From NCBI GenBank assembly GCA_963762205.1, contig CAVXJZ010000003.1, positions 491,371 to 555,370 of the forward strand: a stretch of 64,000 bases of DNA, written 5' to 3'. Position 1 is the first letter of the stretch, and every line of letters begins with the position of its first letter. This document shows, piece by piece, positions 24,139 through 44,977 of the stretch. The notes under the pieces were generated by a model. That model was not told the origin of the DNA. It did not search any database and saw only the letters and a list, made by a program, of their open reading frames with translations. The translations under genes were made by a program, and so were the position numbers. The stretch is from an uncultured Solirubrobacterales bacterium. Its GTDB lineage: Bacteria > Actinomycetota > Thermoleophilia > Solirubrobacterales > 70-9.

Positions 24139-24191
24139 GCGGGGGCAGTCTAGTCCCACGCGGAATGACGCCCGACGCCGTGGTCCCGGCG

Positions 24192-25358: not shown

Positions 25359-25367
25359 CGGCGCAGC

Positions 25368-27001: not shown

Positions 27002-27003
27002 GG

Positions 27004-27213
27004 CTAGCCCCGGGATCCGCGGAGCCCTTCGACCGCCTTCACGACGAGCGCCGGCAGCGCGCGCAGCCTGCGGACAGCCCCGAGCACGTACCTGGCGCGC
27101 GTTTCGAGCTCCAGAAGCCGGCCGCGCGCGGCGCCGAGCTCCGCGTCCCTGGCGACGAGGAGGTCCCTCAGCCTCAGCACCTCCTGCCTTTCCCGGGCCA
27201 GCTCCTCCGCCAA
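27004..27213 (-). CDS. Small predicted coiled-coil protein (hypothetical)
   Basis: 69 aa with a TTG start. The heptad-like sequence is AEELARERQEVLRLRDLLVARDAELGAARGRLLELETRARY. Its TAG lies 2 nt before the GTG of the tandem GT2 gene. No homology recognised, so it may not be translated. Confidence 0.3.
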   Translation of the reverse strand: MAEELARERQEVLRLRDLLVARDAELGAARGRLLELETRARYVLGAVRRLRALPALVVKAVEGLRGSRG

Positions 27214-27291
27214 GCGGGCCGGGTCGGCCGGCTCGCCGAGGGGAGTGGTCTTGGCGGGAGTCGGGTCGTTTTACACGACGGCCGAGTCTAC

Positions 27292-29420: not shown

Positions 29421-29450
29421 CGGCGGGGCGAAGGGTAGGCGAAAGGGCCG

Positions 29451-30311: not shown

Positions 30312-30338
30312 TGCCGCAGGCTATCCGTTCGGCACCCG

Positions 30339-31280: not shown

Positions 31281-32208
31281 GGTCGCCCGCGGCGGCCAGC
31301 TCGCGCCGCTCACGGCGCAGCGCGGGCAGGCGGCGGAGCCCTTCGAGCTTGCCGCGCGCGGTCGCCGCGAATCGGCGCCGGGCGACGCTTCGCGCCAGCG
31401 CACCCGCCTCCACGGCGAGGATGCGGGGGATCGCCGCCGCCGGCATGAACTTGATCTGGGTGGCGAGTCGGTTGCGGGCGACGAGGCGGGCGTTCTCGGC
31501 GCTCGGCCGGGAGAAGCCCGCCTGCCAGACGGCGTTGCCGACGTGCCAGACGATGGACTCGGGCACCATCTCGAAGCGCCAGCCGGCGACCCGCGCACGC
31601 ACGTTGAGGTCGACGTCCTCGCAGAAGGAGACGTAGCTCTCGTCGTAGCCGCCGAGCTCGACGAAGAGATCGCGGCGCAGCAGGCAGGCGGCGCCACAGA
31701 CCCCGAACGGCTCGCTGCGGCTTCGGATCGCCGGGCCGTTCGCCCTGCCCGCGGCGACCTCGAGCCCGCGCCCGTCGCGGGTCAGCGACTGCCCGGCGCT
31801 GTAGACGCGGGCCGCGGACGGGTCCCTTTCCTCCACACGATCCAGCTGCAGGATCAGCGGCTGGACACCGCCCAGTCCGGGGTCGTCCTGGAGTGCGTCG
31901 AGCAGGGGGCGCAGGCAGTCGGGCTCGAGCACCGTGTCGGCATTGAGGACGAGCACCGCGTCGGACGCGGTGCGGGCGGCGCCGAGGTTGACGGCGGCGG
32001 CGAAACCCGTGTTGGACGGGAGGGCGACGTGGCTGACCCGCTCGCGCTCGAGCCAGGCGACGGAGCCGTCCGTCGAGCCGTTGTCGACGACGATCGGCTC
32101 GACCTCGACGCCGCGGCCGGCCGCCTCCAGCGAAGCGAGGCAGCGCCTCAGGTGCTCGAGCGAGTCCCAGTTCGGGATCACCACCGCGACGGATTGAGAG
32201 CCTCTCAC
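31219..32208 (-). CDS. GT2 glycosyltransferase
   Basis: ORF 31219..33162 was trimmed to the GTG at 32208 (GTG 32220 also possible). VAVVIPNWDS, VVDNGSTDGS, NTGFAAAVN, LNADT, FCEDVDLNVR. The upstream ORF part is antisense to rmlA. Confidence 0.7.
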   Translation of the reverse strand: MRGSQSVAVVIPNWDSLEHLRRCLASLEAAGRGVEVEPIVVDNGSTDGSVAWLERERVSHVALPSNTGFAAAVNLGAARTASDAVLVLNADTVLEPDCLRPLLDALQDDPGLGGVQPLILQLDRVEERDPSAARVYSAGQSLTRDGRGLEVAAGRANGPAIRSRSEPFGVCGAACLLRRDLFVELGGYDESYVSFCEDVDLNVRARVAGWRFEMVPESIVWHVGNAVWQAGFSRPSAENARLVARNRLATQIKFMPAAAIPRILAVEAGALARSVARRRFAATARGKLEGLRRLPALRRERRELAAAGDLSAARAWLGAEPAPRPGRAR

Positions 32209-32235
32209 CGGGGGAGGCACGATAGCTTCCCCACG

Positions 32236-33315
32236 ATGCAAGAGCTGAAGGGATTGATCCTCTCCGGCGGGGCCGGGACGCGACTGCGCCCGATCACCCA
32301 CACCTCGGCCAAGCAGCTCGTGCCGGTCGCCAACAAACCGGTCCTCTTCTACGGGATCGAGGCGCTGGTCGAGGCCGGGGTCACCGAGATCGGGATCATC
32401 ATCGCGCCCGAGACCGGCGAGGAGATCCGCGAGACGGCCGGCGACGGCTCCGCCTTCGGGGCGAGCATCACCTACATCCTCCAGGACGAGCCCGCCGGCC
32501 TCGCCCACGCGGTGCTCACCGCCGAGGAGTTCATCGGCGACTCGCCCTTCGTCATGTACCTCGGCGACAACCTGCTGCGCGATGGGCTGCGGGGGCTGGT
32601 CACGACCTTCCGCGAGGAGGGGCCCGACGCGCTGATCCTGCTCACCTCGGTCGAGGACCCCGAGCACTACGGCGTCGCCGAGCTCGACGGCGACGGGGGG
32701 ATCGTGCGCCTGATCGAGAAGCCCAAAAACCCGCCCTCGGACCTCGCCCTCGTCGGCGTCTATCTCTTCGGCCCGGCGATCTTCGACGCCGCCCGCGCGC
32801 TCGAGCCGTCCTGGCGGGGCGAGCTCGAGATCACCGAGGCGATCCAGGGGCTGATCGACGACGGCCATCGGGTCCGCTCGGAGGTCGTCACCGGCTGGTG
32901 GAAGGACACCGGGCAGCTTGCCGACATGCTCGAGGCGAACCGCCTCGTGCTCGAGGAGCTGGAGACGAGCCTCGAGGGTGAGATCGACGACCAGTCCCGG
33001 GTCGAGGGCCGCGTCGTGATCGGCGCCGGCGCCACGGTCCGCGGCTCGGTCGTCCGTGGGCCGGCGGTGATCGGCGCCGGCGCGACCATCGAGGGCTCCT
33101 TCATCGGCCCCTACACCTCGATCGGCGACGAGGTCCGCATCTGTCGCTCGGAGGTCGAGCACTCGATCATCCTCGCCGGGTCGGTGGTCGAGGACCTCGG
33201 CACCCGCATGGAGGCCAGCCTCCTGGGCCGTAACGTGAAGCTGACCCGCAGCGAAGGGATGCCGAAGACGTTCCGCCTGTTGGTCGGGGACAACTCGGAG
33301 ATCGAACTGGTCTGA
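32236..33315 (+). CDS. rmlA: Glucose-1-phosphate thymidylyltransferase (long form with LbH C-terminal domain)
   Basis: The ATG at 32236 within ORF 31543..33315. MQELKGLILSGGAGTRLRPITHTSAKQLVPVANKP, GLAHAV, YGVAE, EITEAIQ, then hexapeptide-like repeats (VIGAGATVRGSVV...). Confidence 0.9.
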   Translation: MQELKGLILSGGAGTRLRPITHTSAKQLVPVANKPVLFYGIEALVEAGVTEIGIIIAPETGEEIRETAGDGSAFGASITYILQDEPAGLAHAVLTAEEFIGDSPFVMYLGDNLLRDGLRGLVTTFREEGPDALILLTSVEDPEHYGVAELDGDGGIVRLIEKPKNPPSDLALVGVYLFGPAIFDAARALEPSWRGELEITEAIQGLIDDGHRVRSEVVTGWWKDTGQLADMLEANRLVLEELETSLEGEIDDQSRVEGRVVIGAGATVRGSVVRGPAVIGAGATIEGSFIGPYTSIGDEVRICRSEVEHSIILAGSVVEDLGTRMEASLLGRNVKLTRSEGMPKTFRLLVGDNSEIELV

Positions 33316-34166
33316 TGAAGCTGCTGGTCACAGGGGCCGCCGGGATGCTCGGCCGCGACGTGATGCTGGCCGCGGGCAACGCCGGCCACGACGTCGTCGG
33401 CTTCGGCCACAACGAGCTCGACGTGACCGACGACGCCTCCGTCCAGGGCAAGCTCGACGCCGAGCGCCCCGACGTCGTGATCAACTGCGCCGCCTGGACC
33501 GACGTCGACGGCGCCGAGGAGGCCGAGGTGGCGGCGATGGCCGTCAACGGGACCGCCGCCGGCCGGATCGCCGCCGCGGCCGCCGCGGTCGGCGCCAGCG
33601 TCGTCTACGTCTCCTCCGACTACGTCTTCGACGGCACCAAGGGCGCCCCCTACGTGGAGGGCGACCAGCCCGCCCCGCTCTCCGCCTACGGGCGCACCAA
33701 GCTCGCCGGGGAGGAGGCGACGGCGGCGGCCAACCCGCGCCATTTCGTCGTCCGCTCCTCATGGCTCTTCGGCACCGGCGGCGGCAACTTCGTCGAGACG
33801 ATGCTGCGGCTCGCGGCCGACCACGGCGAGGTCCTCGTCGTCCACGACCAGGTCGGCTCGCCGACCTACACCTGGCACCTCGCCTACGGCATCGTCCGCC
33901 TGATCGAGGGGCTCGAGCACGGCATCCACCACATGGCCGCCGCAGGGTCCTGCTCCTGGTACGAGTTCGCCCGCGAGATATTCGAGCAGGCCGGGGTCGA
34001 GTGCAAGGTGCTCTCGGCGACGACGGAGATGCTCGGCCGTCCGGCGCCGCGCCCGGCGATCTCGGCCCTGGCCAGCCAGCGCGAGCACGCGATCGAGCTG
34101 CCCGGCTGGCAGGACGGGCTCGCCGGCTACCTGGCCCAGCGGGCGAGCGAGAGGGAGGCGGCATGA
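33315..34166 (+). CDS. rmlD: dTDP-4-dehydrorhamnose reductase
   Basis: MKLLVTGAAGMLG, INCAAWTDVDGAE, YVSSDYVFDG, SAYGRTKLAGE, VVRSSWLFG. The start overlaps the rmlA stop (TGATG). Confidence 0.9.
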   Translation: MKLLVTGAAGMLGRDVMLAAGNAGHDVVGFGHNELDVTDDASVQGKLDAERPDVVINCAAWTDVDGAEEAEVAAMAVNGTAAGRIAAAAAAVGASVVYVSSDYVFDGTKGAPYVEGDQPAPLSAYGRTKLAGEEATAAANPRHFVVRSSWLFGTGGGNFVETMLRLAADHGEVLVVHDQVGSPTYTWHLAYGIVRLIEGLEHGIHHMAAAGSCSWYEFAREIFEQAGVECKVLSATTEMLGRPAPRPAISALASQREHAIELPGWQDGLAGYLAQRASEREAA

Positions 34167-35146
34167 GGCTGCTGGTCACCGGGGCCGCCGGCTTCATCGG
34201 CTCGAGCTACGTGCGCCTGGCCGGCGAGGAGCACGAGGTGAAGGTCCTCGACAAGCTCACCTACGCGGGCCGGCGCGAGAACCTCCCCGACGAGGTCGAG
34301 CTCGTGGTCGGGGCGATCGAGGACCCGCTTGTCGTGCGCGAGGCGATGGAGGGTTGCGACGCGGTCGTCAACTTCGCCGCCGAGTCGCACGTCGACCGCT
34401 CGATCGACGACCAGGACGCCTTCGCCCGCACCCACGTGATCGGCACCGGCGTCCTGCTCGACGCCGCTCGCGAGCTCGGCGTCTCCCGCTACCTGCAGGT
34501 CTCCACCGACGAGGTCTACGGATCGATCGAGTCGGGCTCCTTCACCGAGAGCTCGCCGCTCGACCCCTCCTCGCCCTACTCGGCGACGAAGGCGGCCGGC
34601 GACCTGCTCGTGTCCGCCCACGCCCACACCTACGGGATCGAGGCGGTGATCTGCCGTGGCTCCAACAATTACGGCCCGCGCCAGTACCCGGAGAAGCTGA
34701 TCCCGCTGATGGTCCTCAATGCGATCCACGGCGACCCGCTGCCGGTCTACGGCGACGGCCGCCAGGTTCGCAACTGGCTCTATGTGGAGGACTTCTGCCG
34801 CGGGATCCACACGGTCCTGCTCGACGGCCGCCCCGGCGAGGCCTACAACGTCGGCGGGCCCGACGAGTGCGAGAACATCGAGGTGATCAGGCGGGTGATC
34901 GAGCTGACCGGCGCCGAGGAGTCGCTGATCGAGCACGTCACCGACCGTCCCGGCCACGACCGCCGCTACTCGCTCGGCTCCGAGAAGATCCGCTCCGAGC
35001 TCGGCTGGGAGGCCCGGGTCCATTTCGAGGAGGGCCTCGAGCGCACCGTGGAGTGGTACCGGGAAAACCAGGAGTGGTGGGGGCCGATCCGCTCCGGCGA
35101 GTACCGCGAGTACTACGAAAAACAGTACGGCCGGGCGCTCGGCTAG
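34163..35146 (+). CDS. rmlB: dTDP-glucose 4,6-dehydratase
   Basis: The ATG at 34163 (ATGA overlap with rmlD). LLVTGAAGFIGS, NFAAESHVDRS, VSTDEVYG, SPYSATKAAGD, DGRQVRNWLYVED, DRPGHDRRY. Confidence 0.95.
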   Translation: MRLLVTGAAGFIGSSYVRLAGEEHEVKVLDKLTYAGRRENLPDEVELVVGAIEDPLVVREAMEGCDAVVNFAAESHVDRSIDDQDAFARTHVIGTGVLLDAARELGVSRYLQVSTDEVYGSIESGSFTESSPLDPSSPYSATKAAGDLLVSAHAHTYGIEAVICRGSNNYGPRQYPEKLIPLMVLNAIHGDPLPVYGDGRQVRNWLYVEDFCRGIHTVLLDGRPGEAYNVGGPDECENIEVIRRVIELTGAEESLIEHVTDRPGHDRRYSLGSEKIRSELGWEARVHFEEGLERTVEWYRENQEWWGPIRSGEYREYYEKQYGRALG

Positions 35147-35147
35147 C

Positions 35148-36029
35148 TCAGGCGAAGCTGCGGCGGGCGATCGCCGAGCGCAGCGCCGAGATCGCCAGTT
35201 TGGCGAAGATGGCGACGTAGATCGCGAGATCGAGCAGGGGGTTGTCGCCGGCGTAGAACTTGCGGTAGAAGCGCCCCATCGAGCGGTGGAAGGCGAGGTT
35301 GTGGCGCCAGCCGCGGTGGCTCTTCCTCTTCGTCGTGCCGCCCTTGACGTGCATGCTCGACACGCGGCCGTCGTAGACGACCTTCCAGCCCCTCTGCTTG
35401 AAGCGATAGCACCAGTCGAGGTCGTCCATGTAGAGCCAGTAGCCCTCGTCGAGCAGGCCGACCTCGTCCATCGCGGTCCTGCGGATCAGCATGTAGGCGC
35501 CGTTGACCGCGTCGACCTCGCCCAGCTCGAGCTCGCCCAGCTCCGGGGCCCTGTACTGGGCGAGCCGCGAGCCGAGCCGGTCGCCGACGCCGAGGAAGTG
35601 GGCGAGCGAGCCGAGCGGCGTCGGGAAGGAGCGCTTCGAGGCGTGGTCGAGGGTGCCGTCGCGCTGCTCGAGCCGGCAGCTCGACATCCCGATCGCGGGA
35701 TCGGCCTCCATCAGCTCCATCATGTGGTCGAGCGACCCCGGGTAGATCTCGGTGTCGGGGTTGAGGACGAGGACGTAGGGGGCCTCGACCTCGCGCAGGG
35801 CGATGTTGTTGGCGACGCAGAATCCCGAGTTCCAGTCGAGTGCGTGCAGCTTCACCTCCGGGAACTCCTCGCGGACCATCTCCGGCGTCCCGTCGGCGCT
35901 CGCGTTGTCGACCACGTGGACGAGCGTCTCGCCGCCGCCGTAGGGGTTCTCGCGGAGGCTGCGCAGGCAGGCCCGGAGCAGGTCCCTGGCACCGGTGGAG
36001 GAGACGATCACGATCTCCAGAGAGGACAT
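35148..36029 (-). CDS. GT2 glycosyltransferase
   Basis: ORF 35148..37226 was trimmed to the ATG at 36029 (MSSLEIVIVSSTG). VVDNASADGT, NSGFCVANN, LNPDTE, YMDDLDWCYR. The upstream ORF part is an Arg-rich antisense of lhgO. Confidence 0.75.
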   Translation of the reverse strand: MSSLEIVIVSSTGARDLLRACLRSLRENPYGGGETLVHVVDNASADGTPEMVREEFPEVKLHALDWNSGFCVANNIALREVEAPYVLVLNPDTEIYPGSLDHMMELMEADPAIGMSSCRLEQRDGTLDHASKRSFPTPLGSLAHFLGVGDRLGSRLAQYRAPELGELELGEVDAVNGAYMLIRRTAMDEVGLLDEGYWLYMDDLDWCYRFKQRGWKVVYDGRVSSMHVKGGTTKRKSHRGWRHNLAFHRSMGRFYRKFYAGDNPLLDLAIYVAIFAKLAISALRSAIARRSFA

Positions 36030-36055
36030 CGAAGTAGCGTATCCGAGGGAAATTC

Positions 36056-37234
36056 GTGGTCGAAAGATGCGACACCGCGGTGGTGGGAGGGGGGATTCTC
36101 GGCCTCGCCGTCGCCCGCGAGCTCTCCCGGCGCCGGCCCCGGGAGAGGGTCTGCGTGCTCGAGAGGGAGGCGCGGCCGGGCGTCCACCAGACCGGCCACA
36201 ACTCAGGCGTGATCCACGCCGGCATCTACTACGCGCCCGGCTCGCTGAAGGCGCGGCTCTGCGTCGAGGGCGCGGCGCGCATGTACGAGTACTGCGAGGA
36301 GAGGGGGATCCCGTTCGAGAGGTGCGGCAAGCTGATCGTCGCCACCGACCCGTCCGAGGTGCGCGGCCTCGACGAGCTCGAGCGCCGCGGCCGCGCCAAC
36401 GGGGTCGAGGGCCTGCGGCGGGTCGACGCCGCCGGCCTCGCGGAGATCGAGCCGCGGGCGACCGGGGTCGCCGCCCTGCACAGCCCGAACACGGGCATCG
36501 TCGACTTCGGCGCCGTCGCCGCGGCCTTCGCCGACGATCTGCGTGCGGCCGGTGGCTCGCTCGAGCTCGGCCGTGAGGTGCTCGGCCTGGAGGCGTCCTC
36601 GCGCCGCCTCCTGGTCCGCCACGCGGAGGGCGAGCTCGAGGCCGGGCAGGCGATCTGCTGCGCCGGCGCCTGGTCGGACCGCCTGGCGGTCGCCGCCGGG
36701 GCCGATCCCGACCCCCGCATCGTCCCCTTCCGAGGCGCCTACCTGAAGCTGGCGCCGGGGCGGCAGGAACTGGTCCGCTCGCTGATCTACCCCGTGCCCG
36801 ACCCCTCGCTTCCCTTCCTCGGCGTCCACCTGACCAGGAACGTCGACGGCGAGGTGCTGATCGGCCCGACCGCGCTGCTGGGCACCGCCGGCCTCGGCCG
36901 CACCCTCGCCTGGCCGGGATCCTGGCGCATGTTCCGCCGTTGGTGGCGCACCGGCGCCACCGAGCTGCTCCACGCCGTCTCGCGGCGCTCCCTCGTCGCC
37001 GCGGCGGCCCGCTACGTCCCCGAGCTGCGCGCCGCCGACGTCGTCCCCGCCTTCGCCGGCGTGCGTGCCCAGGCGGTCGCCCGCGACGGGCGCCTCGTCG
37101 ACGACTTCGTCTTCTCCGCCACCGATCGCGCCCTCCACGTCCGCAACGCTCCCTCGCCCGCGGCGACCTCGTCGCTGGCGATCGCCGCCCACGTCGCCGA
37201 CGAGGCCGAACGCCGGCTCCTACCACCGCTCTGA
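36056..37234 (+). CDS. lhgO: L-2-hydroxyglutarate oxidase/dehydrogenase (FAD-dependent)
   Basis: AVVGGGILGLA (FAD), HQTGHNSGVIHAGIYYAPGSLKA, CGKLIVAT, PFRGAYLKLAP, LIYPVPDPSLPFLGVHLTR, AGVRAQAV..DGRLVDDF, NAPSPAATSS. These align along the whole length with my recollection of E. coli LhgO (YgaF). Confidence 0.85.
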   Translation: MVERCDTAVVGGGILGLAVARELSRRRPRERVCVLEREARPGVHQTGHNSGVIHAGIYYAPGSLKARLCVEGAARMYEYCEERGIPFERCGKLIVATDPSEVRGLDELERRGRANGVEGLRRVDAAGLAEIEPRATGVAALHSPNTGIVDFGAVAAAFADDLRAAGGSLELGREVLGLEASSRRLLVRHAEGELEAGQAICCAGAWSDRLAVAAGADPDPRIVPFRGAYLKLAPGRQELVRSLIYPVPDPSLPFLGVHLTRNVDGEVLIGPTALLGTAGLGRTLAWPGSWRMFRRWWRTGATELLHAVSRRSLVAAAARYVPELRAADVVPAFAGVRAQAVARDGRLVDDFVFSATDRALHVRNAPSPAATSSLAIAAHVADEAERRLLPPL

Positions 37235-37286
37235 CGCTTGACCCTGCTATCGCATGGTCAAAGTCCGAAGCGGCCGGGCGAGCGCC

Positions 37287-37853
37287 TCAGTATTCGAACT
37301 GAGGGCCCTCCAGCCTCGGCTCGAGCTCGGCCAGCGTGGGCGCCGCCGCGTCCTTCTCGGAGGGGATCAGCTCCTCGACCGGCAGCGGCCACTCGATTCC
37401 CAGGGCGGGGTCCCTGTAGGAGAGCTCGCTCTCGGGGCCGGTCGCGTAGTAGACGCTCTGCTTGTAGATCGTGTTGGCGACCTCGCTCAGCGTGCAGAAC
37501 CCGTGTGCAAACCCGACCGGGCAGTAGACGACGCGCATGTTGTCCTCGCTGAGCTCGAAACCCTCCGAGTGGCCGAAGGTGGGGGAGCCCCTGCGCAGGT
37601 CGACGACCACGTCGTAGATCGCCCCGTGGCCGCAGCGGACGAGCTTGGCGACGCCGGCCCCGAGCTGGAAGTGCAGTCCGCGCACGATCCTCTGGGCCGA
37701 GCGCGAGTGGTTGTCCTGGACCCAGGTTCCGGGGATGCCGATCTCCTCGAAGGCGTCCTGCCGGTAGGTCTCCGCGAAGAAGCCCCGCTCGTCTCCGTGC
37801 TTGACGAGCTCGACCAGGATCGGTCCCTCCAGCTTCGTCTCCAGTCTGCGCAC
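37287..37853 (-). CDS. rmlC: dTDP-4-dehydrorhamnose 3,5-epimerase
   Basis: HGDERGFF, QDNHSRSAQRIVRGLHFQ, KLVRCGHGAIYDVVVDLR, PVGFAHGF, YYATGPESELSYRDPALGIEWP. 188 aa. Confidence 0.9.
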   Translation of the reverse strand: MRRLETKLEGPILVELVKHGDERGFFAETYRQDAFEEIGIPGTWVQDNHSRSAQRIVRGLHFQLGAGVAKLVRCGHGAIYDVVVDLRRGSPTFGHSEGFELSEDNMRVVYCPVGFAHGFCTLSEVANTIYKQSVYYATGPESELSYRDPALGIEWPLPVEELIPSEKDAAAPTLAELEPRLEGPQFEY

Positions 37854-37869
37854 CGCTTTCCTGCCTTTC

Positions 37870-38730
37870 TCAATCGCCTGCCGAGCCGGCCAGCCCGGCC
37901 CGCGTCATGTACTCCTCGAGCGCCTCGCGCCAGGGGCGCAGCGGCGTGAGGCCCAGGGAATCGGCCCGCGGGCGGGCGAGGACGCCGTTCAGCGGACGCG
38001 CGGCGCCGCCCTCCGGCACCGTGGTCTCCGTCGGCTCGATCGGCACCTCGATCCCGGCCAGCTCCATGATCGCCTGCGTGTACTCGAACCACGAGCACCC
38101 GCCCGCCGCCGTCAGATGCAGCACGCCCTCGGCCTCAGCCTCGACGGCCTCGATCAGCGCCCTCGCCAGGTCGACCGTGAAGGTCGGCTGCAGGCGCTGG
38201 TCGGCGACGACCGCGAGCGAGCCGTTCCTCTTCGCCGCGGCGATGATCCGCTGCACGAAGTTGCCGCCCTTGGAGGCGTTGCCCCGGGTCCCGTAGAGCC
38301 CGGCGGCGCGCACGACCAGCGGTCGCTCGCCGTAGGCCAGCGCCGCGTACTCGCCGGCCAGCTTCGAGAGCGCGTAGTAGGACCGGGGAGAGGGAGGGTG
38401 GTCCTCGGGATAGGGCTCGGGGCGCCCGCCGTCGAAGACGTAGTTGGTCGAGATGTGGACCATGGGCACGCCCCTGGACGCGAGGCTGCGGACCGCGCGG
38501 ACGTTGATCGCCCAGGCCTCCTCGACCGCGGTCTCGCATTCGTCGACGTTGTGGAAGGCGGCGCAGTTGAAGACGACGTCGGGCTCGACCTCGGCGAAGG
38601 CGCGCTCGACCGACGCCTCGTCGTCGATGTCGAGCGCCGCGTGGTCCAAGGGGAAGGCCGAGTCGGGGCCCAGGAGGTCGGCGAGGTCGTGGCCGAGCTG
38701 GCCCGCACCCCCCGTGATCAGCGCCCTCAC
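37870..38730 (-). CDS. RmlD-like NAD(P)-dependent 4-ketoreductase (second paralog)
   Basis: The GTG at 38730 (position obtained by counting from the stop; GTGA overlap with the upstream gene). VRALITGGAGQLG, FNCAAFHNVDECE, HISTNYVFDG, SYYALSKLAGE, VVRAAGLYG. 286 aa. Confidence 0.7.
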   Translation of the reverse strand: MRALITGGAGQLGHDLADLLGPDSAFPLDHAALDIDDEASVERAFAEVEPDVVFNCAAFHNVDECETAVEEAWAINVRAVRSLASRGVPMVHISTNYVFDGGRPEPYPEDHPPSPRSYYALSKLAGEYAALAYGERPLVVRAAGLYGTRGNASKGGNFVQRIIAAAKRNGSLAVVADQRLQPTFTVDLARALIEAVEAEAEGVLHLTAAGGCSWFEYTQAIMELAGIEVPIEPTETTVPEGGAARPLNGVLARPRADSLGLTPLRPWREALEEYMTRAGLAGSAGD

Positions 38731-39797
38731 AGGACCGCTGGGAAGGAATCCAGGGCCGGCCTGACCTCGCAGAGGAGTTCGAGCCAGCGGATGTTGTAGT
38801 GGTGGGGATCGGTGAGCTGGGCCGGGTCCTGGCCCTCGAGCTTGCCGAGCATCTCGGTCACCGACTCGAGCACCGAGCGACTGGGGACGATGCCGAGCGT
38901 GGTCGAGAGCTTCGCGTTGGCGCACTCGTAGTCGCGCGAGAGCTCCGGCGCCGGCGCCTCGTCGAGTTGCACCTCGCGGCCGGTCAGCTGCACGGAGCCG
39001 GCGACGATCATCGCCAGCTCGCGGATCTGGTAGTTCGAGTGGACGACGTTGAAGATCTCCCCGCGCACCTTCTCCGCCGGCGCCTCGTATGCGGCGATCA
39101 TCGCGTCGGCGCAGTCCTGGACGTCGACCAGCGGCCGCCACATCCAGCCGCCTCCGTGCAGGTTGAGCGCGCCCGAGAGCAGCGCGTCCTTGACGAAGGT
39201 GTTGACGACGAGGTCGAAGCGCATGCGCGGGCTCCAGCCATAGACCGTGCCGTTGCGCAGGATCGCCGGGCAGAGGCCGTCGTCGGCCATCTCGATCAGC
39301 TTCTCCTCGCCGTAGCGCTTCGAGGTCGCGTAGGCGGCGCGCGGCGCGACCGGCGCGTCCTCGGCGTGCATCCCGGCCGGCAGGCCGTCGTAGAGCGAGC
39401 AGGACGAGGCGAAGACGTAGCGCTCGATCCCCGCCGCGACGCACCTGCGCCCGAGCGTCTCGGTGGCGAGCGCGTTCATCTCCCAGTTGGCCTCGGGGTC
39501 GAACTCGGCGGTCGGGTCGTTGCTGAGGCCGGAGAGGTTGATCACACCGTCGATGCCGTCGAGGGCGCCGTCCGGGATGTCGCGGACGTCGGCCACGACG
39601 AGCTCGATCCGGTCGCGGAACGAGGCGAGAGGCTCCTCGCCGAAGTAGAGGCGGTCGAGGAGGCGGACGCGGTAGCCGCGGTCGAGGAGGCGCGGGACCA
39701 GGACGCAGCCGATGTAGCCGGCGCCGCCGGCGACGAGGATCGTCTGGTCGGGGTCCGGGGCGCTCGCGGAGAGGCCGTTGTGGCGGTGGCTGCTCAT
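38727..39797 (-). CDS. NAD-dependent epimerase/dehydratase (extended SDR)
   Basis: ORF 38727..39851 was trimmed to the ATG at 39797, downstream of the preceding gene's stop at 39832. ILVAGGAGYIGC, FASSCSLYG, AAYATSKRYGE, LRNGTVYG. Confidence 0.75.
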   Translation of the reverse strand: MSSHRHNGLSASAPDPDQTILVAGGAGYIGCVLVPRLLDRGYRVRLLDRLYFGEEPLASFRDRIELVVADVRDIPDGALDGIDGVINLSGLSNDPTAEFDPEANWEMNALATETLGRRCVAAGIERYVFASSCSLYDGLPAGMHAEDAPVAPRAAYATSKRYGEEKLIEMADDGLCPAILRNGTVYGWSPRMRFDLVVNTFVKDALLSGALNLHGGGWMWRPLVDVQDCADAMIAAYEAPAEKVRGEIFNVVHSNYQIRELAMIVAGSVQLTGREVQLDEAPAPELSRDYECANAKLSTTLGIVPSRSVLESVTEMLGKLEGQDPAQLTDPHHYNIRWLELLCEVRPALDSFPAVL

Positions 39798-39831: not shown

Positions 39832-41325
39832 TCAGTAGGCCCCCTCGCCACGCACGATCGCGCCCGGCGTGCGCACCAGGATCGCCAGGTCGGTGACGAT
39901 CGAGAGGTTGTCGAGGTAGTCGCGCTCCATCGCCAGGCGCTCCTCGAAGGTGAGGTCGCTGCGGCCGTAGACCTGCATCGGCCCGGTGATCCCGGGCTTG
40001 ACGCCGAGCCTGGTCCGCTGGCGCTGGTCGTAGAGGGCGACGACCGCCTCCTCCTCGGGCCGCGGGCCGACCAGCGACATCGATCCGCCGAGCACGTTGA
40101 TCAGCTGCGGCAGCTCGTCGAGGCTGGCGCGGCGCAGGGCACGGCCGGCGCGCGTCACCCGGGGGTCGTCGGGGATCTTGAAGGCCGGTTGGTCGAGCTG
40201 CTCGAGGTCGACCAGGTCGCCGAGGCGCTCCTCGGCGTCGGCGACCATGGTGCGGAACTTCAGCATCGTGAAGGGCCTGCCCTCCTTGCCCGCCCGCCGC
40301 TGCCGGAAGAGGACGGGCCGCCCCGAGTCGAGCAGGATCAGGACCGCGATCGCCGCCAGCAGCGGCGAGAGCAGGACCAGGAAGAGAGCGGATACGAACA
40401 CGTCCATGCCGCGCTTCATCGCGATCGTCGAGCGCGGCGGGTCGGAGAAGCGGAAGTCGAGCACAGGCAGCTCGGCGAGGCGGTTGAGCTCGATGCCCGG
40501 CCCCAGCAGCCCATAGTGCTGGGGCAGGAAGGTGAGCCCGAGGCCGGCGGCCTTGCACTCCTCGATCAGCCGCTCCGCGTCCGCCTCGCCCATCTCCTGC
40601 TCGGTGACGATCACCCGCTCGACGCCCTGCTCCCGCGCCACCCGGGCGATGTCGTCGACGCTGCCGAGCCGGGCCAGGCCTGCGGCCGTGCTGGTCTCGC
40701 CGGCCGGGGCCAGGTAGCCGGCCAGGCTCAGCCGCGCCTCCGGGTGGGTGGCGATCCGCCGCGCCACCCGGTCGGCGACGTCGGCCGGCCCGATCACGAG
40801 GCCGACGGAGACCTCGGTGAGCCGCTGCCAGGCGAAGCGCAGCGCGGCGCGCAGCAGGAAGCTGCCGGCGAAGACGAGGACCCCGACGAGCGCCGCTGTG
40901 CTCGGGGTGAGGGCTCCGGCCGGGGTGAGGACGAGCAGCCCGTCGAGGGCGAGCGTGCCGAGGGTGCTGGCCGAGACCAGCGCCGGCAGCTCGTCGAGAG
41001 TGCTGTGGCGGATCCGGCGGTGGTCGTTGTCGTAGAGGCCGTGGAGCTTGACGACCAGCACCCAGACGGGGCTGAACAGCACCGCCCAGAAGAGTGTCGC
41101 CACGTTTGCGCTCGAGGTCGCCACGGTCGCCACGCAGAGCGCCGCCACCATCGCCAGCCAGTCGCCGCTGGCGAGCAGGCGCCGCAGCTGGGCGCCACGC
41201 TGGCGGTAGTTCCGAGCGCCGGCGAGGCGCTCCGCGTCGCCGGGTCCCTTCGCATCCGGCGCGGTCCCGCCCCGCGCCGCCGGGCGGGACCGGGCGCCGC
41301 CGGTTTGCTTCGCCTTCTGCGTCAT
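39832..41325 (-). CDS. Polyprenyl-phosphate glycosyl-1-phosphate transferase (WbaP/CpsE-type initiating enzyme)
   Basis: The ATG at 41325 (ATGA overlap with the upstream gene). N-terminal TM block, a central Rossmann-like domain (VIGPADVADRVARRI...VERVIVTE), and the Bac_transf core: KRGMDVFVSALFLVLLSPLL, FRQRRAGKEGRPFTMLKFRTM, DELPQLINVLGGSMSLVGPRP. Confidence 0.85.
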   Translation of the reverse strand: MTQKAKQTGGARSRPAARGGTAPDAKGPGDAERLAGARNYRQRGAQLRRLLASGDWLAMVAALCVATVATSSANVATLFWAVLFSPVWVLVVKLHGLYDNDHRRIRHSTLDELPALVSASTLGTLALDGLLVLTPAGALTPSTAALVGVLVFAGSFLLRAALRFAWQRLTEVSVGLVIGPADVADRVARRIATHPEARLSLAGYLAPAGETSTAAGLARLGSVDDIARVAREQGVERVIVTEQEMGEADAERLIEECKAAGLGLTFLPQHYGLLGPGIELNRLAELPVLDFRFSDPPRSTIAMKRGMDVFVSALFLVLLSPLLAAIAVLILLDSGRPVLFRQRRAGKEGRPFTMLKFRTMVADAEERLGDLVDLEQLDQPAFKIPDDPRVTRAGRALRRASLDELPQLINVLGGSMSLVGPRPEEEAVVALYDQRQRTRLGVKPGITGPMQVYGRSDLTFEERLAMERDYLDNLSIVTDLAILVRTPGAIVRGEGAY

Positions 41326-43289
41326 TCGCCGCCCGCCTTCAGCTGCGGGGCCAGCGGGTTCATCTCCCGCGCCCTTTCGAGGTCGGCCCGCGCCGCGTCC
41401 GCGTCGCCGGCGGCCGCCTCGGCGCGCGAGCGCAGGGCGTAGAGCTCCCAGTTGCCGTCCTCGCGCTCGATCGCCTGGCTGAGCCGCTCGACCGCGAGGT
41501 CGTATTCGCCCTGTCGCTCGGCGATCAGGCCGAGCTGGAGGTAGGGCGAGGCCGCCCAGGGCTCGATCGAGCGGGCGGTGTCGGCGTGGTCGACGGCGCC
41601 GATCACGTCGCCGGCCGCCACCGCGCGCTGGCTCGCCCTGATCTCGCGCTCGACCAGCAGCGGGCCGATCAGGGCGATCGCGGCGATCCAGGCGAGCGCG
41701 ACGCCCCCCAGCGCGAGGCCGAAGCGCCTGTCGGGGCCGCCGGCGTCGGGGGGAGCCGGCGAGAGCTGCTCGCACCTGGCCGCGGCGAGGGCGCCGGCGG
41801 CGAGGCAGAAGACCGCTCCCAGGGCCGCGATCTCCCAGAACCAGTCGAAGGCGACGCCGACCGCGAAGACGAGCAGCGCCGCGAGCAGCGCCGCATGGGT
41901 CTCGCGCCGGCGGCGCGAGGCGCCGCGCCAGGCCGAGATCCCGACCCAGAGGATCGACCCGAGGAGGGCGAGGACGATCAGGCCTCCGATCGCGCCGAGC
42001 TCGGCGAAGGCCTCCAGGTAGAGCGAGTGGGCGTCGATCACGTCGAGGCTGATCGAGCGCGACTGGTCCCAGGAGAACTCGAAGGTGCCGGCCCCGTGCC
42101 CGAGCACCGGCCTTTCGCCGAAGGCATCGACCGCAACCCGCCAGAAGTCGTGCCGGCCGGCGCTGGAGAGGTCGGAGAAGTGCTGGGCCGGGTCCTCGGG
42201 GAATGCGATGTCCGAGCTCGAGAAGTCGTCCCAGGCGCGACCGCCGAAGACGAGCGCGGCGGCGACGGCGGCGACTCCGAGGGCGATCGCCGCCCCTCTG
42301 AGGACGGCGGGATCGCGGGAGAGCTCGACCGCCCTCCTCGTGCCCGGGCCGCCGCGGGTCTCGACCCGGCGCAGAAGAGCGAACAGCGCCAGGGAGACCG
42401 CGGTGCCGGCGAGGAGGATGAGCAGCACCGTCACCCCCTGGTCGACGGCCGCCTGCGATGAAACGCTGTCGGCGAGGCTGTGGTTTCGGGGGACCGCGAT
42501 CAGGGCCGGCAGGGCCCCGAGCGCGGCGACGACGAGGGTCGCCAGCATCCAGAGCCGGTCGCGGGAGAGGGCGACGATGCACAGGGCGCCGATCGCGAGC
42601 GCCAGCACGCCGCCCCTCGAGTAGGTGAAGTAGAGGGTGAGCATGACGGCAGGCATCGCGGCCACCGCGGCCCACCGCAGCGGCGTCCAGCGGGAGCCGC
42701 GGCTGAGCCAGAGCAGCATCGCCACGGCGACTCCGCACATCGCCCCGTTGGCGTTCCAGTAGCCGAGCGGGTAGCGCAATCGGGGCCCGTGCCCAAGGCC
42801 CTCGGTGAACTCGAGCACGTGGGGCAGAAGGCGGCTGCCGAGGGCGAGGAGGACGACGATCGTGACGCCTATTGCAATGCCTTCTGCGAAACGTTCGCGC
42901 CTCTCGTCGGTTTGGGCGATAAGGAAAGCGGCAAGGAAGAAGGCGAGATAGACGAGGACCCGATCCGCCTCGATCACGCTCAACTCGACCGAGCCCGACC
43001 AGAGGGACGACATTGCGGAGAGAAATGCCAGACAGCCGAACAGCCCGACAGCCGAGTAGAGCGGCCAGCCCAGGCGCGCACGGGCGGCGGCGCCAAGCAC
43101 GAGCAGGCCGACGACCACCAGCCACACCGCGAGGCCCGCAATGTGACGGTCCGTCACGTCGAATCCGCCACCGCTCAGGGCGAGGCCGACGATCAGCGCG
43201 ACTGGGGCGAGCAGCGCCGCCGTTTGCTCTAACCTTGCGCCCGATGACCTGGAATCACCGCCAGGCGGCCCTTGGCTGGGGCCGCTCAT
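41322..43289 (-). CDS. Wzy_C-family membrane protein (O-antigen ligase / O-oligosaccharyltransferase / polymerase-like) with C-terminal TPR-like repeats
   Basis: ORF 41322..43784 was trimmed to the ATG at 43289 (MSGPSQG...). About 12 TM segments with a large loop carrying ...DAHSLYLEAFAELGAIGG... (Wzy_C-type H-containing motif). The C-terminal helical repeats (SPYLQLGLIAERQGEYDLAVERLSQAIE...) look like TPR. The start is uncertain because it overlaps the divergent ORF. Confidence 0.7.
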   Translation of the reverse strand: MSGPSQGPPGGDSRSSGARLEQTAALLAPVALIVGLALSGGGFDVTDRHIAGLAVWLVVVGLLVLGAAARARLGWPLYSAVGLFGCLAFLSAMSSLWSGSVELSVIEADRVLVYLAFFLAAFLIAQTDERRERFAEGIAIGVTIVVLLALGSRLLPHVLEFTEGLGHGPRLRYPLGYWNANGAMCGVAVAMLLWLSRGSRWTPLRWAAVAAMPAVMLTLYFTYSRGGVLALAIGALCIVALSRDRLWMLATLVVAALGALPALIAVPRNHSLADSVSSQAAVDQGVTVLLILLAGTAVSLALFALLRRVETRGGPGTRRAVELSRDPAVLRGAAIALGVAAVAAALVFGGRAWDDFSSSDIAFPEDPAQHFSDLSSAGRHDFWRVAVDAFGERPVLGHGAGTFEFSWDQSRSISLDVIDAHSLYLEAFAELGAIGGLIVLALLGSILWVGISAWRGASRRRRETHAALLAALLVFAVGVAFDWFWEIAALGAVFCLAAGALAAARCEQLSPAPPDAGGPDRRFGLALGGVALAWIAAIALIGPLLVEREIRASQRAVAAGDVIGAVDHADTARSIEPWAASPYLQLGLIAERQGEYDLAVERLSQAIEREDGNWELYALRSRAEAAAGDADAARADLERAREMNPLAPQLKAGGE

Positions 43290-43813
43290 TCCTCTTGCTC
43301 TTGTCAGCGCTTGTTCTGCTGGCATTGGCCGTGCTCCCCGCGATCGCTCAGGCCGACGAAACGTCGAGCGGCGTCGAGTACGAATCCGCGCTGCCCAGCG
43401 CCGAAGGCAAGGGTCCGCCGAACGAACAGATCGCCAAGTCGTCCGAATCGCCGGGCAGCGGCGGCGCGGAAGCGCCGGGCTCCGGCTCGACCGGTTCGGG
43501 TAGTGGTTCGTACACGGCGGGAAACCCCTCTGGTTCGGGAAGCGGTGGTGCGGCCACGGGCAGCGACGGCGGTACCGGGCAGGGTAGCCCAGACCAGGGC
43601 GCAACCCCCCCCGGCGAAGCGGGCCTGCAGTCCGCCGACCCGGTCGCGACCTCGAACGCGTCTTCGGGCGGTGGATCCTCGCCGCTGATCGCGATCCTGA
43701 TTGCGGTTTTCGCGCTGGCCGCGATCTCCGTCGGCGCGGTGATGATCCGCCAGCGCCGCCAGCGCCGCCGGTCCGGCGGCACACGCACCTCGCTCTCCAC
43801 GAAGGCCGGCTAG
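43244..43813 (+). CDS. Secreted Gly/Ser/Thr/Pro-rich low-complexity protein with C-terminal TM anchor and Arg-rich tail (hypothetical)
   Basis: The ATG at 43244 within ORF 43013..43813. Signal-peptide-like FLLLLSALVLLALAVLPAIAQA. About 120 aa of GSGS/TG/PG low complexity. Then PLIAILIAVFALAAISVGAVMI followed by RQRRQRRR. No other gene explains 43290-43813. Confidence 0.5.
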   Translation: MTWNHRQAALGWGRSFLLLLSALVLLALAVLPAIAQADETSSGVEYESALPSAEGKGPPNEQIAKSSESPGSGGAEAPGSGSTGSGSGSYTAGNPSGSGSGGAATGSDGGTGQGSPDQGATPPGEAGLQSADPVATSNASSGGGSSPLIAILIAVFALAAISVGAVMIRQRRQRRRSGGTRTSLSTKAG

Positions 43814-43816: not shown

Positions 43817-44977
43817 GTGTCGCAGACGGGCAGGGGCCTTCGTCGGCGGGCTCGCGCGTGGAGCGCCGCCGCCGCGATCCTCGCGATCGCCGGCATCTCG
43901 GCCTCCCTGCCGCCTGTCGCCGGCGCGGTTCCCGGCAATTTCTGGGGCGTCGCCCCGCAGGCGGCCCCGAGCGGCGAACAGTTCCAGCGCCTGAAGCTGG
44001 GCGGTGTCGACAGCGTCCGGGTGCCGATCGAATGGGGCGCGGTGCAGGCCGAGGCCGGCGGCGGCTTCAACTGGAACGGCACCGACGAAATGGTCGCCGG
44101 CGCCGCCGCGGCGGGCATCGAAGTCTTCCCGTTCCTCACCGGCGCCCCCCGCTGGGCGGTGCCGCAGGCGGTCGTCAACAGGGCCGCCCACGCCCTGGCG
44201 CCGCGCAACCTGCCGGTAAGGAACGGCAAGCAGAAGCGTGGTTGGAAGGCCTTCCTGCACGAGGCGGTCGGGCGCTACGGCCCGCACGGGGCCTTCTGGG
44301 CGGCCAACCCGGCGACCCCCTACCGGCCGGTACGCATCTGGCAGCTCTGGAACGAGCCCAACTTCAAATACTTCGTCGCCCGCCCCAACCCGGCCGAGTA
44401 CGGGAAGCTGATCAAGCTCTCCTACCCGGTGATCAAGAAGCTCGATCGCGGCGCCCGGATCGTCCTCGGCGGGCTCTTCGCCGCTCCCAGGGAAGCCGAA
44501 TACAGGCGCAGGCCGCCGCTCGCCTACTTCGCCACCGACTTCCTCAGGCAGCTCTACAAGAGGACACGGGGGATCAAGCGCAAGTTCGACGGTGTCGCCC
44601 TGCACCCCTACACCTCCGAATTCGACGAAATCGCCGGCCACGTCGAGGCGGTGCGCCGGGTGCTCAAGGCGAGCCACGACCCCGGCGCGGCCCTCTGGAT
44701 AACCGAGCTCGGCTGGAGCGCCGGCAGGCCGCAGAAGAGCAACGGCTTCAACGATTTCGAGAAGGGCCCGCAGGGCCAGGCGCGCCAGCTCAAGGGGGCC
44801 TTCCGCCTGCTCAAGAAGAACCAGCGCAGGTGGCGCCTCAGGCAGGTCTTCTGGTTCTCGGTCGACGACCGACCGGGCGCCTGTAACTTCTGCGACGGCT
44901 CTGGCCTTTTCGCGCCGGGCTTCGTGCCGCGACCGTCCTGGCGGGCGTACGTCAGGTTCGCCGGCGGCAGGGCATAA
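43817..44977 (+). CDS. Secreted glycoside hydrolase, clan GH-A (TIM-barrel) candidate
   Basis: GTG start 3 nt after the previous stop. Signal-like N-terminus (RRRARAWSAAAAILAIAG). IWQLWNEPN (acid/base NEP) and LWITELGWS (nucleophile-type E). The family cannot be assigned without a search. Confidence 0.55.
   Translation: MSQTGRGLRRRARAWSAAAAILAIAGISASLPPVAGAVPGNFWGVAPQAAPSGEQFQRLKLGGVDSVRVPIEWGAVQAEAGGGFNWNGTDEMVAGAAAAGIEVFPFLTGAPRWAVPQAVVNRAAHALAPRNLPVRNGKQKRGWKAFLHEAVGRYGPHGAFWAANPATPYRPVRIWQLWNEPNFKYFVARPNPAEYGKLIKLSYPVIKKLDRGARIVLGGLFAAPREAEYRRRPPLAYFATDFLRQLYKRTRGIKRKFDGVALHPYTSEFDEIAGHVEAVRRVLKASHDPGAALWITELGWSAGRPQKSNGFNDFEKGPQGQARQLKGAFRLLKKNQRRWRLRQVFWFSVDDRPGACNFCDGSGLFAPGFVPRPSWRAYVRFAGGRA

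Follow-up and report, generated by a model that had tools for sequence, protein, structure and literature searches.

A 64,000-nucleotide stretch from an uncultured Solirubrobacterales bacterium (GenBank assembly GCA_963762205.1, contig CAVXJZ010000003.1, positions 491,371 to 555,370 of the forward strand; hereafter the window, numbered from its first letter) contains a divergent gene pair in which a polytopic membrane protein with a Wzy_C domain and C-terminal tetratricopeptide repeats (TPRs) and a small Gly/Ser-rich membrane protein, here called GS, share their first 27 codons on opposite strands. The order of genes around this pair, with GS, a secreted glycoside hydrolase and Lhr on one side and the Wzy_C gene followed by a WbaP-type gene on the other, recurs in about 80 independent Solirubrobacterales assemblies, far beyond chance. 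As a whole, the locus is best explained as the transfer end of an ABC-transporter-dependent rhamnose-glycan pathway in which GS would accept the finished glycan, an account that is tentative and a little short of even likelihood. Its parts differ in strength: the Wzy_C enzyme is probably a ligase rather than a polymerase, the chances that its acceptor is a protein are evenly balanced, and GS is a possible, slightly less than even, choice for that protein. The account is built on gene content, on the fold and topology of the enzyme, on the conservation of the pair and its overlap and on selection acting on individual GS residues, all of which are direct results.

Related loci were obtained from a scan of one genome per species, which yielded 80 loci, and from contig look-ups, which added two; 83 loci were analysed overall. 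The 80 scanned loci were all metagenome-assembled and mostly labelled Solirubrobacterales, with a few labelled Conexibacteraceae, Thermoleophilia, Actinomycetota or Chloroflexota, and the complete genomes among them measured approximately 2.5-3 Mb. For most homologs the neighbourhood covered consisted of the ±10-kb flanks rather than the whole genome, and the related loci total 1.8 Mb. Overlap length was scored in 72 loci, GS conservation and codon positions were analysed in 77 aligned orthologs, invariant enzyme columns were taken from an alignment of the top 120 homologs, and Pfam matches were listed at E ≤ 0.01. Because the GC content of the window is so high (68-76%), GC content by codon position was informative in telling real genes from the many spurious open reading frames (ORFs).

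The Wzy_C gene occupies a minus-strand ORF (41322..43784) that matches Pfam Wzy_C (PF04932) at 1.8e-15, with 57.5 bits against a cutoff of 31.7, and carries TPR matches at its C-terminal end. GC content at third codon positions (GC3) is 0.91 downstream of about 43180, where the signal fades. A first-pass annotation, made by a model from the letters of the window, had placed the start at ATG 43289 (MSGPSQ), 46 nt inside GS; the divergent overlap is real, but this second Met is not conserved across loci. Twelve codons upstream, ATG 43325 (MPAEQALT) has GGGGAG 8 nt before it, the aligned position in the 83 loci holds ATG, GTG or TTG followed by (P/R)-x-E-(Q/P), and no other in-frame start is found upstream of the strongly conserved first membrane helix. 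The conserved start is read as ATG 43325 and not 43289, which gives a predicted protein of 667 aa (41322..43325, minus strand), in agreement with homologs of 665-674 aa, and an overlap with GS of 82 nt. Homologs number more than 2400; the top 120 are 64-95% identical and all contain PF04932, while identity across the clade is 54-95%, the most distant locus (L080) standing at 54%. At its other end, the Wzy_C stop codon overlaps the start of the next gene as GAATGACG, i.e., ATGA, and this gene (39832..41325, minus strand) encodes a WbaP-type polyprenyl-phosphate hexose-1-phosphate transferase, with a Pfam Bac_transf match at 1.3e-62 and a TIGR03025 score of 351 bits against a cutoff of 295.6. 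It adjoins the Wzy_C gene in nearly all loci, at 66-80% identity, and from its ATGA junction is predicted to be translationally coupled to the ligase gene. The original description of a Wzy_C-type membrane protein with C-terminal TPRs, ATGA-coupled to a WbaP-like gene, thus agrees with both Pfam and a reading of the sequence.

The GS gene (43244..43813, plus strand) encodes 189 aa, and all of the parts first ascribed to it are present: a signal peptide ending in LPAIAQA before Asp, a 109-aa Gly/Ser-rich low-complexity ectodomain, one transmembrane helix and the cluster RQRRQRRR. GC3 is 0.81 in its own frame, compared with 0.65 and 0.66 at the other two codon positions. An initial concern that this ORF might not be conserved proved unfounded, as orthologs subject to protein-level selection stand at the same place in 82 of the 83 loci, two of them frameshifted, and the remaining locus begins inside the Wzy_C gene. 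Seventy-seven orthologs of 164-210 aa (window included) were extracted, and five more, including that of L080, were found by eye, two of which were the frameshifted ones. In these two metagenome-assembled genomes GS is split within the low-complexity region (L015:9380-10150 and L039:8200-9000), which could reflect misassembly of the repetitive Gly/Ser sequence or a genuine pseudogene. GS is single-copy in the neighbourhoods, and a wider search uncovered a large family: a GS profile run against 1.84 billion cluster representatives (50% identity) yielded at least 617 matching clusters with E ≤ 1e-3, of which 178 reached E ≤ 1e-30. The top 150 clusters all match most or all of the profile, with proteins of 146-469 aa, all but two of which are shorter than 290 aa. 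By the evidence of its sequence, GS is a real gene under protein-level selection.

No Pfam domain was found in the GS family by the Pfam scans. DUF6480 (PF20088) was considered and rejected, since it scored 22.5 bits against a cutoff of 25 and just 2 of 36 members matched at E ≤ 0.01. Family members are annotated as hypothetical or, in the many entries (P0124, P0126 and others) that one source calls 'cobalamin biosynthesis Mg chelatase CobN', under a name that is almost certainly a low-complexity annotation artefact. A lipobox in the signal peptide (LALAC) was also discarded, as the Cys is absent in the window and its context is non-canonical.

The ectodomain of GS (median 113 aa) is 21% Gly, 20% Ser, 6% Thr and 8% Pro, with 4% hydrophobic residues and a net charge of approximately -6, and GS is predicted to be a type I membrane protein whose disordered stalk is mucin-like and whose cytoplasmic tail is short and basic. 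Conserved features include the AxA signal-peptidase site, a central G-G-T-G-Q-G-S-P motif and the basic cluster past the helix. At the mature N-terminus, alignment of the 77 orthologs revealed the motif S-S-G-[VI]-[QE]-Y-x-x-A-x-P-x-x-x-G (43364..43408, plus strand), in which Tyr46 (43379-43381) is invariant in 77 of 77 and Pro51 is 99% conserved; in 66 of the 77, the ectodomain has no other aromatic residue than this Tyr. At the other end of the stalk, Ser145-Ser146-Pro147 (43676..43684, plus strand), directly before the transmembrane helix, is invariant in the same alignment and almost invariant once the extra ortholog of L066, which has Gly-Ser-Pro, is included, within a pre-helix consensus of G-G-S-S-P-L-[VI]-P. 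The helix (aa 148-168; hydropathy 2.86) and the basic stop-transfer cluster RQRRQRRR (aa 169-176), also supported by the alignment, together span 43685..43771 on the plus strand. Because third codon positions vary at Tyr46, Pro51 and Ser145-Ser146-Pro147, selection acts on these residues at the protein level, and signals of the ligase gene on the opposite strand were ruled out as the cause of their conservation. In contrast, the conservation of GS codons 20-35, which lie in the overlap, and of the C-terminal [EK]-Ala is accepted as a by-product of signals of the neighbouring genes. No paralog of either the N-terminal motif or the C-terminal anchor was found in the window or in the 1.8 Mb of related loci. 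In 15 of the 77 orthologs (e.g., L026, L045 and L070), the D-S-S-G before the invariant Tyr is replaced by E-C-x-S-S-S-C, and the two Cys residues, four residues apart, suggest a small disulfide loop at the candidate recognition motif in that subfamily.

The antiparallel overlap of the two genes (43244..43325 on both strands) is 79, 82 or 85 nt long in 67 of the 72 loci and covers the cytoplasmic N-terminal tail of the Wzy_C protein and the n- and h-regions of the GS signal peptide, i.e., the tolerant parts of both proteins. Its GC content is 0.61, compared with 0.71-0.73 in the flanks, and the third codon positions of GS are almost invariant inside it, which indicates dual coding. Just outside it, cross-locus nucleotide conservation revealed a 14-nt element, TTTG(G/C)TCTAACCTT, at -21 to -8 relative to the GS ATG (43223..43236, plus strand). 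Its nucleotide frequencies per position in 77 loci are 0.81-1.00, synonymous sites of the Wzy_C gene included, except at -17 (G 0.65), and it occurs once in the window. The element holds TAACCT, a -10-like hexamer of the TANNNT type that ends 8 nt before the GS ATG, and it sits in Wzy_C codons 30-34, where the enzyme strand reads the rare codons AGG-TTA-GAG-CAA because the conserved element forces them; TTA accounts for 0.3% of Leu codons in 14 window genes. A scan of 42900-45200 for consensus sigma-70 sites found none, the -10-like element emerged only from conservation across loci, and no Shine-Dalgarno sequence precedes the GS ATG. The element may represent the -10 of the GS promoter, and its position suggests that the GS transcript would be leaderless or nearly so. 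The promoter of each gene would then lie inside the transcribed region of the other, which could couple their expression, and the forced TTA possibly subjects the ligase to rare-codon control.

Downstream of GS, a secreted glycoside hydrolase of clan GH-A, GH39/PslG-like (43817..44977, plus strand), begins at GTG 43817 in the same frame and 3 nt past the GS stop codon, TAG, exactly where it was first placed. The gene is present in approximately 80 loci. Its Pfam match to Glyco_hydro_cc is weak, while phmmer against the Protein Data Bank (PDB) recovered a xylosidase (4ekj, 7e-8) and PslG (4zn2, 1.2e-7), and the NEP and TELG motifs are kept, reading WNEPNF and ITELGW in the window; both are presumed to carry the catalytic Glu residues. 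The nucleotides (G/A)AGGC are conserved in the last GS codons ([EK]-Ala; window 43801-43819), 11 nt before the hydrolase GTG, and are read as the Shine-Dalgarno sequence of the hydrolase gene, which would couple its translation to that of GS. This role accounts in part for the conservation of the GS C-terminus, SPEAS, and the two genes are predicted to be co-transcribed as an operon. The hydrolase signal peptide (window 43817-43950) contains LRRRARAW, a possible twin-arginine (Tat) signal, while that of GS is of the Sec type with AxA.

An AlphaFold2 (AF2) model of the enzyme, built from 120 sequences (pLDDT 85.6, pTM 0.86), contains 15 long membrane helices instead of the approximately 12 segments counted at first. 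An earlier model built from 30 close homologs (pLDDT 56.6) gave only TPR matches in Foldseek. With the better model, the top match was WaaL (7tpg_B; E 1e-5, probability 1.00, target-normalised template modelling (TM) score 0.56), with the SEDS protein FtsW in second place, and 7TPG was the sole solved membrane protein matching at E < 1e-3. The model indicates that the enzyme has a WaaL-like polytopic fold with a large outside loop. Sequence profiles were less informative, as the membrane-only profile matched nothing meaningful in the PDB (HslV at E 0.07 is noise) and the full-length profile was swamped by TPR proteins with consensus repeats. The Pfam Wzy_C domain (41973..42413, minus strand; aa 305-451 of 667, or 293-439 from the 43289 start) takes in membrane helices as well as the N-terminal portion of the large extracytoplasmic loop. 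This loop (residues ~369-434; 41988..42221, minus strand) contains the invariant blocks GRHDF, P..GHGAGT and DAHSLYLE.F..LG..GG. The last block, with AHSLYLEAFAELGAIGG in the window, matches H[NSQ]x9Gxx[GTY], which we take to be the ligase motif of the WaaL literature. H433, R237 (in SRGG), R391 and R423 are invariant in the 120 sequences. The His, Arg and Gly motifs of the outside loops are invariant, and by motif reading the His and Arg residues appear to correspond to those expected of WaaL-type ligases.

A highly conserved module of three TPRs (41361..41606, minus strand), identified by Pfam, PDB profile matches and Foldseek, follows the last membrane helix and superposes on three-TPR peptide-binding modules with TM scores of 0.8-0.9. 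Four helices lie between the outside loop and this module, and the cytoplasmic loops between them are Arg-rich (RGASRRRRE; RCEQ…DRR). Because of the four intervening helices and the positive-inside rule, the TPR module is predicted to lie outside the cell, beside the catalytic loop and on the same side as the GS ectodomain.

The remaining genes of the glycan cluster (20012..39797, by Pfam scans) provide a context that the first-pass annotation did not use. An ABC-2 permease, Wzm (~27292-28158, minus strand), and an ABC ATPase, Wzt, with a Wzt_C glycan-cap-binding domain (28146-29420, minus strand), together span 27292..29420, and genes for RmlA (~32240-33315), RmlB (~34160-35146), RmlC (37287-37904), RmlD (37870-38763) and an epimerase (38727-39797) follow. 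The 20-40-kb region of the window also encodes a GT4-methyltransferase fusion, two further methyltransferases, an AlgX-like SGNH protein and GT2 glycosyltransferases. In most related loci rmlCBDA comes after WbaP, and where the 10-kb flank reaches far enough (L011, L014, L035, L039 and L069), Wzt or Wzm homologs lie downstream of rml together with the same GT2 and methyltransferase. The glycosyltransferase downstream of WbaP in related loci is approximately 30% identical to the nearest GT2 of the window. No Wzx/MOP flippase (Polysacc_synt), PCP/Wzz, LCP or SLH/S-layer protein was detected in any scanned ORF of the 64-kb window. Likewise, no Wzx was found in the ±10-kb flanks of the 83 loci, where representatives of the ten largest unassigned clusters of ORFs with multiple transmembrane segments gave no flippase match and proved to be an MFS transporter, an ABC exporter, an acyltransferase and one weak PF01901/GT-C-like protein. 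A reading as ligase over polymerase is supported by Wzm/Wzt with Wzt_C, rmlABCD, the glycosyltransferases and the methyltransferases, because a chain completed in the cytoplasm before export through Wzm/Wzt calls for no Wzy but does require an enzyme to release it from its lipid carrier. The S-layer glycosylation (slg) clusters of Geobacillus and Paenibacillus have the same gene set (PMC2943079), and the proposed account takes the locus to be organised like them.

In the proposed pathway, whose glycan chemistry, ligase activity, protein acceptor and acceptor site are predictions, the WbaP-type enzyme would prime undecaprenyl phosphate with hexose-1-phosphate, cytoplasmic GT2 and GT4 enzymes would extend the chain from dTDP-rhamnose made by RmlABCD, and a methyltransferase would probably cap it. 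Wzm/Wzt would export the finished lipid-linked polymer, and the 667-aa Wzy_C+TPR enzyme would move the chain en bloc at the outer face of the membrane. That the enzyme retains 54-95% identity while a glycosyltransferase retains approximately 30% would fit an enzyme that reads a conserved reducing end and not the repeat unit. The likeliest acceptor would be GS, as a type I protein with a disordered stalk of about 113 residues, recognised by the extracytoplasmic TPR module. The chain might be attached at the tip of the stalk, in the motif of invariant Tyr46 and Ser41-42, or at the Ser-Ser-Pro of the membrane interface, where a helix docked from the side would come within reach of an active site of the WaaL type. 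In the slg systems, O-linkages through Tyr, Ser and Thr have all been described (PMC2943079). The co-transcribed PslG-like hydrolase may trim or release the glycan.

That the neighbouring mucin-like protein receives the glycan was the central suggestion of the first pass; the ligase context, the conserved pair and the outside TPR module agree with transfer to protein, while GS itself remains a candidate acceptor. It is favoured because the pairing is clade-wide and locked by the start overlap, because single-substrate O-oligosaccharyltransferases (O-OTases) typically adjoin a small membrane-anchored acceptor, and because the enzyme bears a highly conserved protein-binding module that is predicted to face the same compartment as the GS ectodomain. 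It is also favoured because its few fixed residues are hydroxyl ones in short motifs at both ends of the stalk, and because the host lineage is Gram-positive and so has no lipid A-core. Several points weigh against this account. The Pfam Wzy_C domain and the WaaL fold are common to ligases, O-OTases and polymerases, so that neither settles activity (PMC12645811). PglL_A and Wzy_C_2, the marks of PglL and PglS enzymes, were not among the Pfam matches of the enzyme at E ≤ 0.01, which were to Wzy_C and TPR families alone. GS is translationally coupled to the hydrolase and not to the ligase, and could thus work together with the former instead; moreover, a PslG-like hydrolase combined with a WbaP-type initiator is reminiscent of Wzx/Wzy exopolysaccharide loci such as Psl. 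The search for Wzx reached no further than ±10 kb around most homologs. Finally, a Gram-positive Wzy_C ligase with a glycolipid acceptor, TacL, is already known (PMC5727136).

TacL provides the main rival explanation, which is unlikely but the strongest of the alternatives: the enzyme would transfer the rhamnan from undecaprenyl diphosphate to a membrane glycolipid, forming a lipoglycan, or to another wall polymer, and GS would be an accessory protein, for instance one that serves as scaffold or spacer or that works with the hydrolase. TacL of Streptococcus pneumoniae contains Wzy_C and ligates a teichoic acid chain linked to undecaprenyl diphosphate to a glycolipid (PMC5727136); its domain and Gram-positive host type agree with those of the enzyme described here, and its acceptor, like the candidate acceptor GS, is membrane-anchored. 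The translational coupling of GS with the hydrolase rather than the ligase would also fit an accessory role, and the best fold match of the enzyme, WaaL of Cupriavidus metallidurans (7TPG), is a lipid-acceptor ligase that shares Wzy_C and a large outside loop with a conserved His. Identity to WaaL is 14%, with no sequence-profile match, the enzyme has three extra membrane helices and TPRs, and its host lineage is Gram-positive and without a lipid A-core acceptor. TacL (397 aa) likewise lacks TPRs and works with a Wzx-like flippase, TacF, instead of Wzm/Wzt, whereas here a conserved outside module of three TPRs lies beside the catalytic loop. Furthermore, no gene for synthesis of a glycolipid anchor is conserved in the core locus, and a glycolipid acceptor gives no reason for the conserved 82-nt overlap that ties the ligase gene to that of a disordered protein, with its invariant Tyr and its Ser-Ser-Pro.

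Somewhat less likely again is that the enzyme is a general O-OTase acting on an S-layer or on many secreted proteins, in the manner of WsaB, WsfB or PglL, with GS as one substrate or none. The gene set resembles that of the slg clusters of Geobacillus stearothermophilus NRS 2004/3a and Paenibacillus alvei, which likewise combine a WbaP-type initiator (WsaP/WsfP) with Wzm/Wzt and RmlABCD, contain methyltransferase/glycosyltransferase fusions and methyl-capping rhamnosyltransferases, and reside in Gram-positive hosts, the acceptor gene lying near the cluster in Geobacillus. In these systems the WbaP homolog unexpectedly works with Wzm/Wzt, and a 2-O-methyl cap terminates the polyrhamnan (PMC2943079). 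WsaB and WsfB are predicted O-OTases with Wzy_C; C-terminal TPRs are present in WsfB and PglL, while WsaB has a TPR protein, WsaA, encoded next door (PMC2943079). Compared by gene set and published description, the slg enzymes have Wzy_C and TPRs either fused (WsfB) or adjacent (WsaA), and the window has a Wzy_C enzyme with TPRs clustered with a WbaP-type initiator, Wzm/Wzt and rmlABCD. A literature search on Solirubrobacterales glycosylation and on WsfB found nothing beyond this 2010 review (PMC2943079). A general enzyme would also be consistent with the preference of PglL-type enzymes, which are unlinked to their substrates, for disordered Ser/Ala/Pro-rich regions (PMC12645811), and with other secreted proteins of the window, e.g., an RTX-repeat protein at 51187-53136. 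The slg systems differ in having Firmicutes hosts and an S-layer acceptor, whereas the present host belongs to the Actinomycetota (Thermoleophilia), no SLH or S-layer gene was found among the window ORFs scanned, and GS, the candidate acceptor, is a disordered protein of 19 kDa with a membrane anchor, encoded by a gene whose start region overlaps the transferase gene.

The strict, order-wide adjacency of the Wzy_C and GS genes and the overlap of their starts instead resemble pairs of a dedicated O-OTase and its acceptor, and the N-terminal motif of GS was found in no other ORF of the 1.8 Mb of gene neighbourhoods that make up the related loci. Dedicated O-OTases (TfpO/PilO, TfpM and PglS) are typically encoded beside a single membrane-anchored acceptor, which they glycosylate at a defined Ser or Thr (PMC12645811), and TfpO/PilO with pilin, TfpM with pilin and PglS with ComP likewise pair a Wzy_C/WaaL-like enzyme with one small membrane-anchored protein. 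Those acceptors are type IV pilins with an N-terminal anchor, whereas GS is no pilin but a type I protein that is anchored at its C-terminus and bears a mucin-like stalk, and the enzyme described here differs in its extracytoplasmic C-terminal TPR module and in lacking PglL_A and Wzy_C_2. It does not fit the TfpO/TfpM class, as its neighbour is no pilin and its score with the TfpM model of NCBIfam, 11.2 bits, is far under the cutoff of 600; its nearest curated NCBIfam family, at 39 bits and below the cutoff of 188, is TIGR03097, 'putative O-glycosylation ligase, exosortase A system-associated'.

It is improbable that the enzyme is the Wzy polymerase of a separate, Psl-like Wzx/Wzy exopolysaccharide with a flippase encoded elsewhere, the Wzm/Wzt cluster being an unrelated neighbour. 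Pfam Wzy_C does include polymerases, and Wzx/Wzy exopolysaccharide loci typically carry an initiator of the WbaP type and a hydrolase of the PslG type. The hydrolase matches PslG of Pseudomonas aeruginosa and GH39 at E ~1e-7 with NEP and TELG kept, but unlike PslG it comes from a Gram-positive lineage, lies in a proposed ABC-dependent rhamnan locus and is translationally coupled to GS. A weak match to PF01901 in another large membrane protein of the related loci shows that uncharacterised GT-C-like enzymes occur in such clusters. Neither a Wzx/MOP flippase nor PCP/Wzz was detected in the window, however, nor Wzx within ±10 kb in the 83 loci, and rml and Wzm/Wzt remain linked to the locus in other genomes. 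Moreover, Wzy polymerases generally rank with the most variable of envelope genes, whereas this enzyme retains 54-95% identity over a clade in which the glycosyltransferases beside it diverge. The presence of a WbaP homolog with Wzm/Wzt is itself already known from slg clusters (PMC2943079).

Very improbable is the suggestion, made in the first pass from its tripartite shape, that the GS C-terminus is a sorting signal cut and re-anchored by a sortase- or exosortase-like enzyme, as for PGF-CTERM and PEP-CTERM, since the conserved SSPL(V/I)P, transmembrane helix and basic cluster, the link of PEP-CTERM systems to exopolysaccharide loci and the XrtA/PEP-CTERM-associated families among the best NCBIfam matches of the enzyme and WbaP, all below cutoff, are outweighed by the failure of any NCBIfam signal model to match (best CoaP_CTERM, 12.3 bits against a cutoff of 35), by the confinement of the anchor to the single-copy, stand-alone GS family with no anchor-only architecture among the top 150 clusters, by a tail of ~12-20 residues after the basic cluster, and by the lack of a sortase, exosortase or rhombosortase among the window ORFs scanned.

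Several further features were observed in the window and the related loci. A large membrane protein, encoded by an ORF of up to 940 aa with approximately 11 transmembrane segments, lies downstream of rmlA in L070 (19114-21933) and ten other loci, likely also in L082 (20469-22016); it matches PF01901, 'putative O-antigen polymerase', weakly (31.7 bits against 24.2) and does not occur in the window. The window does contain a second set of envelope genes (2534-4177 and 7754-10039, minus strand; 9670-11433, 12135-13322, 13660-14469 and 15388-17697, plus strand), which encodes a PMT_2-like GT-C enzyme, three large proteins with multiple transmembrane segments and no Pfam family, an LPG_synthase_TM protein and a GT2, and which looks like a polyprenyl-phosphate-sugar system that would decorate glycans outside the membrane. 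The RTX-repeat protein mentioned above (minus strand, 649 aa) has 11 calcium-binding repeats (HemolysinCabind, 6e-63) and is encoded beside PCMT and Crp genes; as a secreted protein it could be another surface component or glycosylation target. In one genome, toxin-antitoxin genes (PIN with a FitA-like RHH, L082:14455-15099; PemK, L082:3553-3825) lie within or beside the otherwise conserved locus.

Clusters of the slg type and dedicated pairs of O-OTase and acceptor each have precedents. Novel features of the present locus would be its lineage, the fusion of an extracytoplasmic TPR module to a 15-helix enzyme of the WaaL fold, the conserved 5' coding overlap, and a mucin-like acceptor family that is neither pilin nor S-layer protein and had no prior annotation. 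The divergent coding overlap of ~82 nt, with its embedded promoter-like element and forced rare TTA, is an architecture of interest in itself. O-OTases that act on glycans whose reducing end is Glc or Gal, such as PglS and TfpM, are sought for the engineering of conjugate vaccines (PMC12645811), and the WbaP-primed pathway implies such a substrate here, with possible use in glycoengineering.

The role of Wzy_C/WaaL-family ligases in Gram-positive Actinomycetota is, to our knowledge, essentially unknown, and the lipid-carrier-dependent (en bloc) O-glycosylation of proteins in Gram-positive bacteria is known to us mainly from a few S-layer systems of Firmicutes. The order-wide pairing of an enzyme with a candidate acceptor offers a concrete, testable hypothesis for the Wzy_C ligases of Actinomycetota. 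In its fullest form, which is more doubtful than the general account, the locus would specify a membrane-anchored bacterial proteoglycan, in which a dedicated WaaL-fold TPR O-OTase places a methyl-capped polyrhamnan on GS, at the invariant Tyr or a juxtamembrane Ser, the two genes being tied by an overlap of ~82 nt that carries the promoter of one inside the other. Such an enzyme would accept glycans with a plain reducing-end hexose and would act on a short, defined acceptor tag. If a mucin-like type I membrane protein does serve as acceptor, it would represent a new way of anchoring surface polysaccharide, and the proteoglycan would be a protein-anchored counterpart of the O-antigen of lipopolysaccharide or of lipoteichoic acid.

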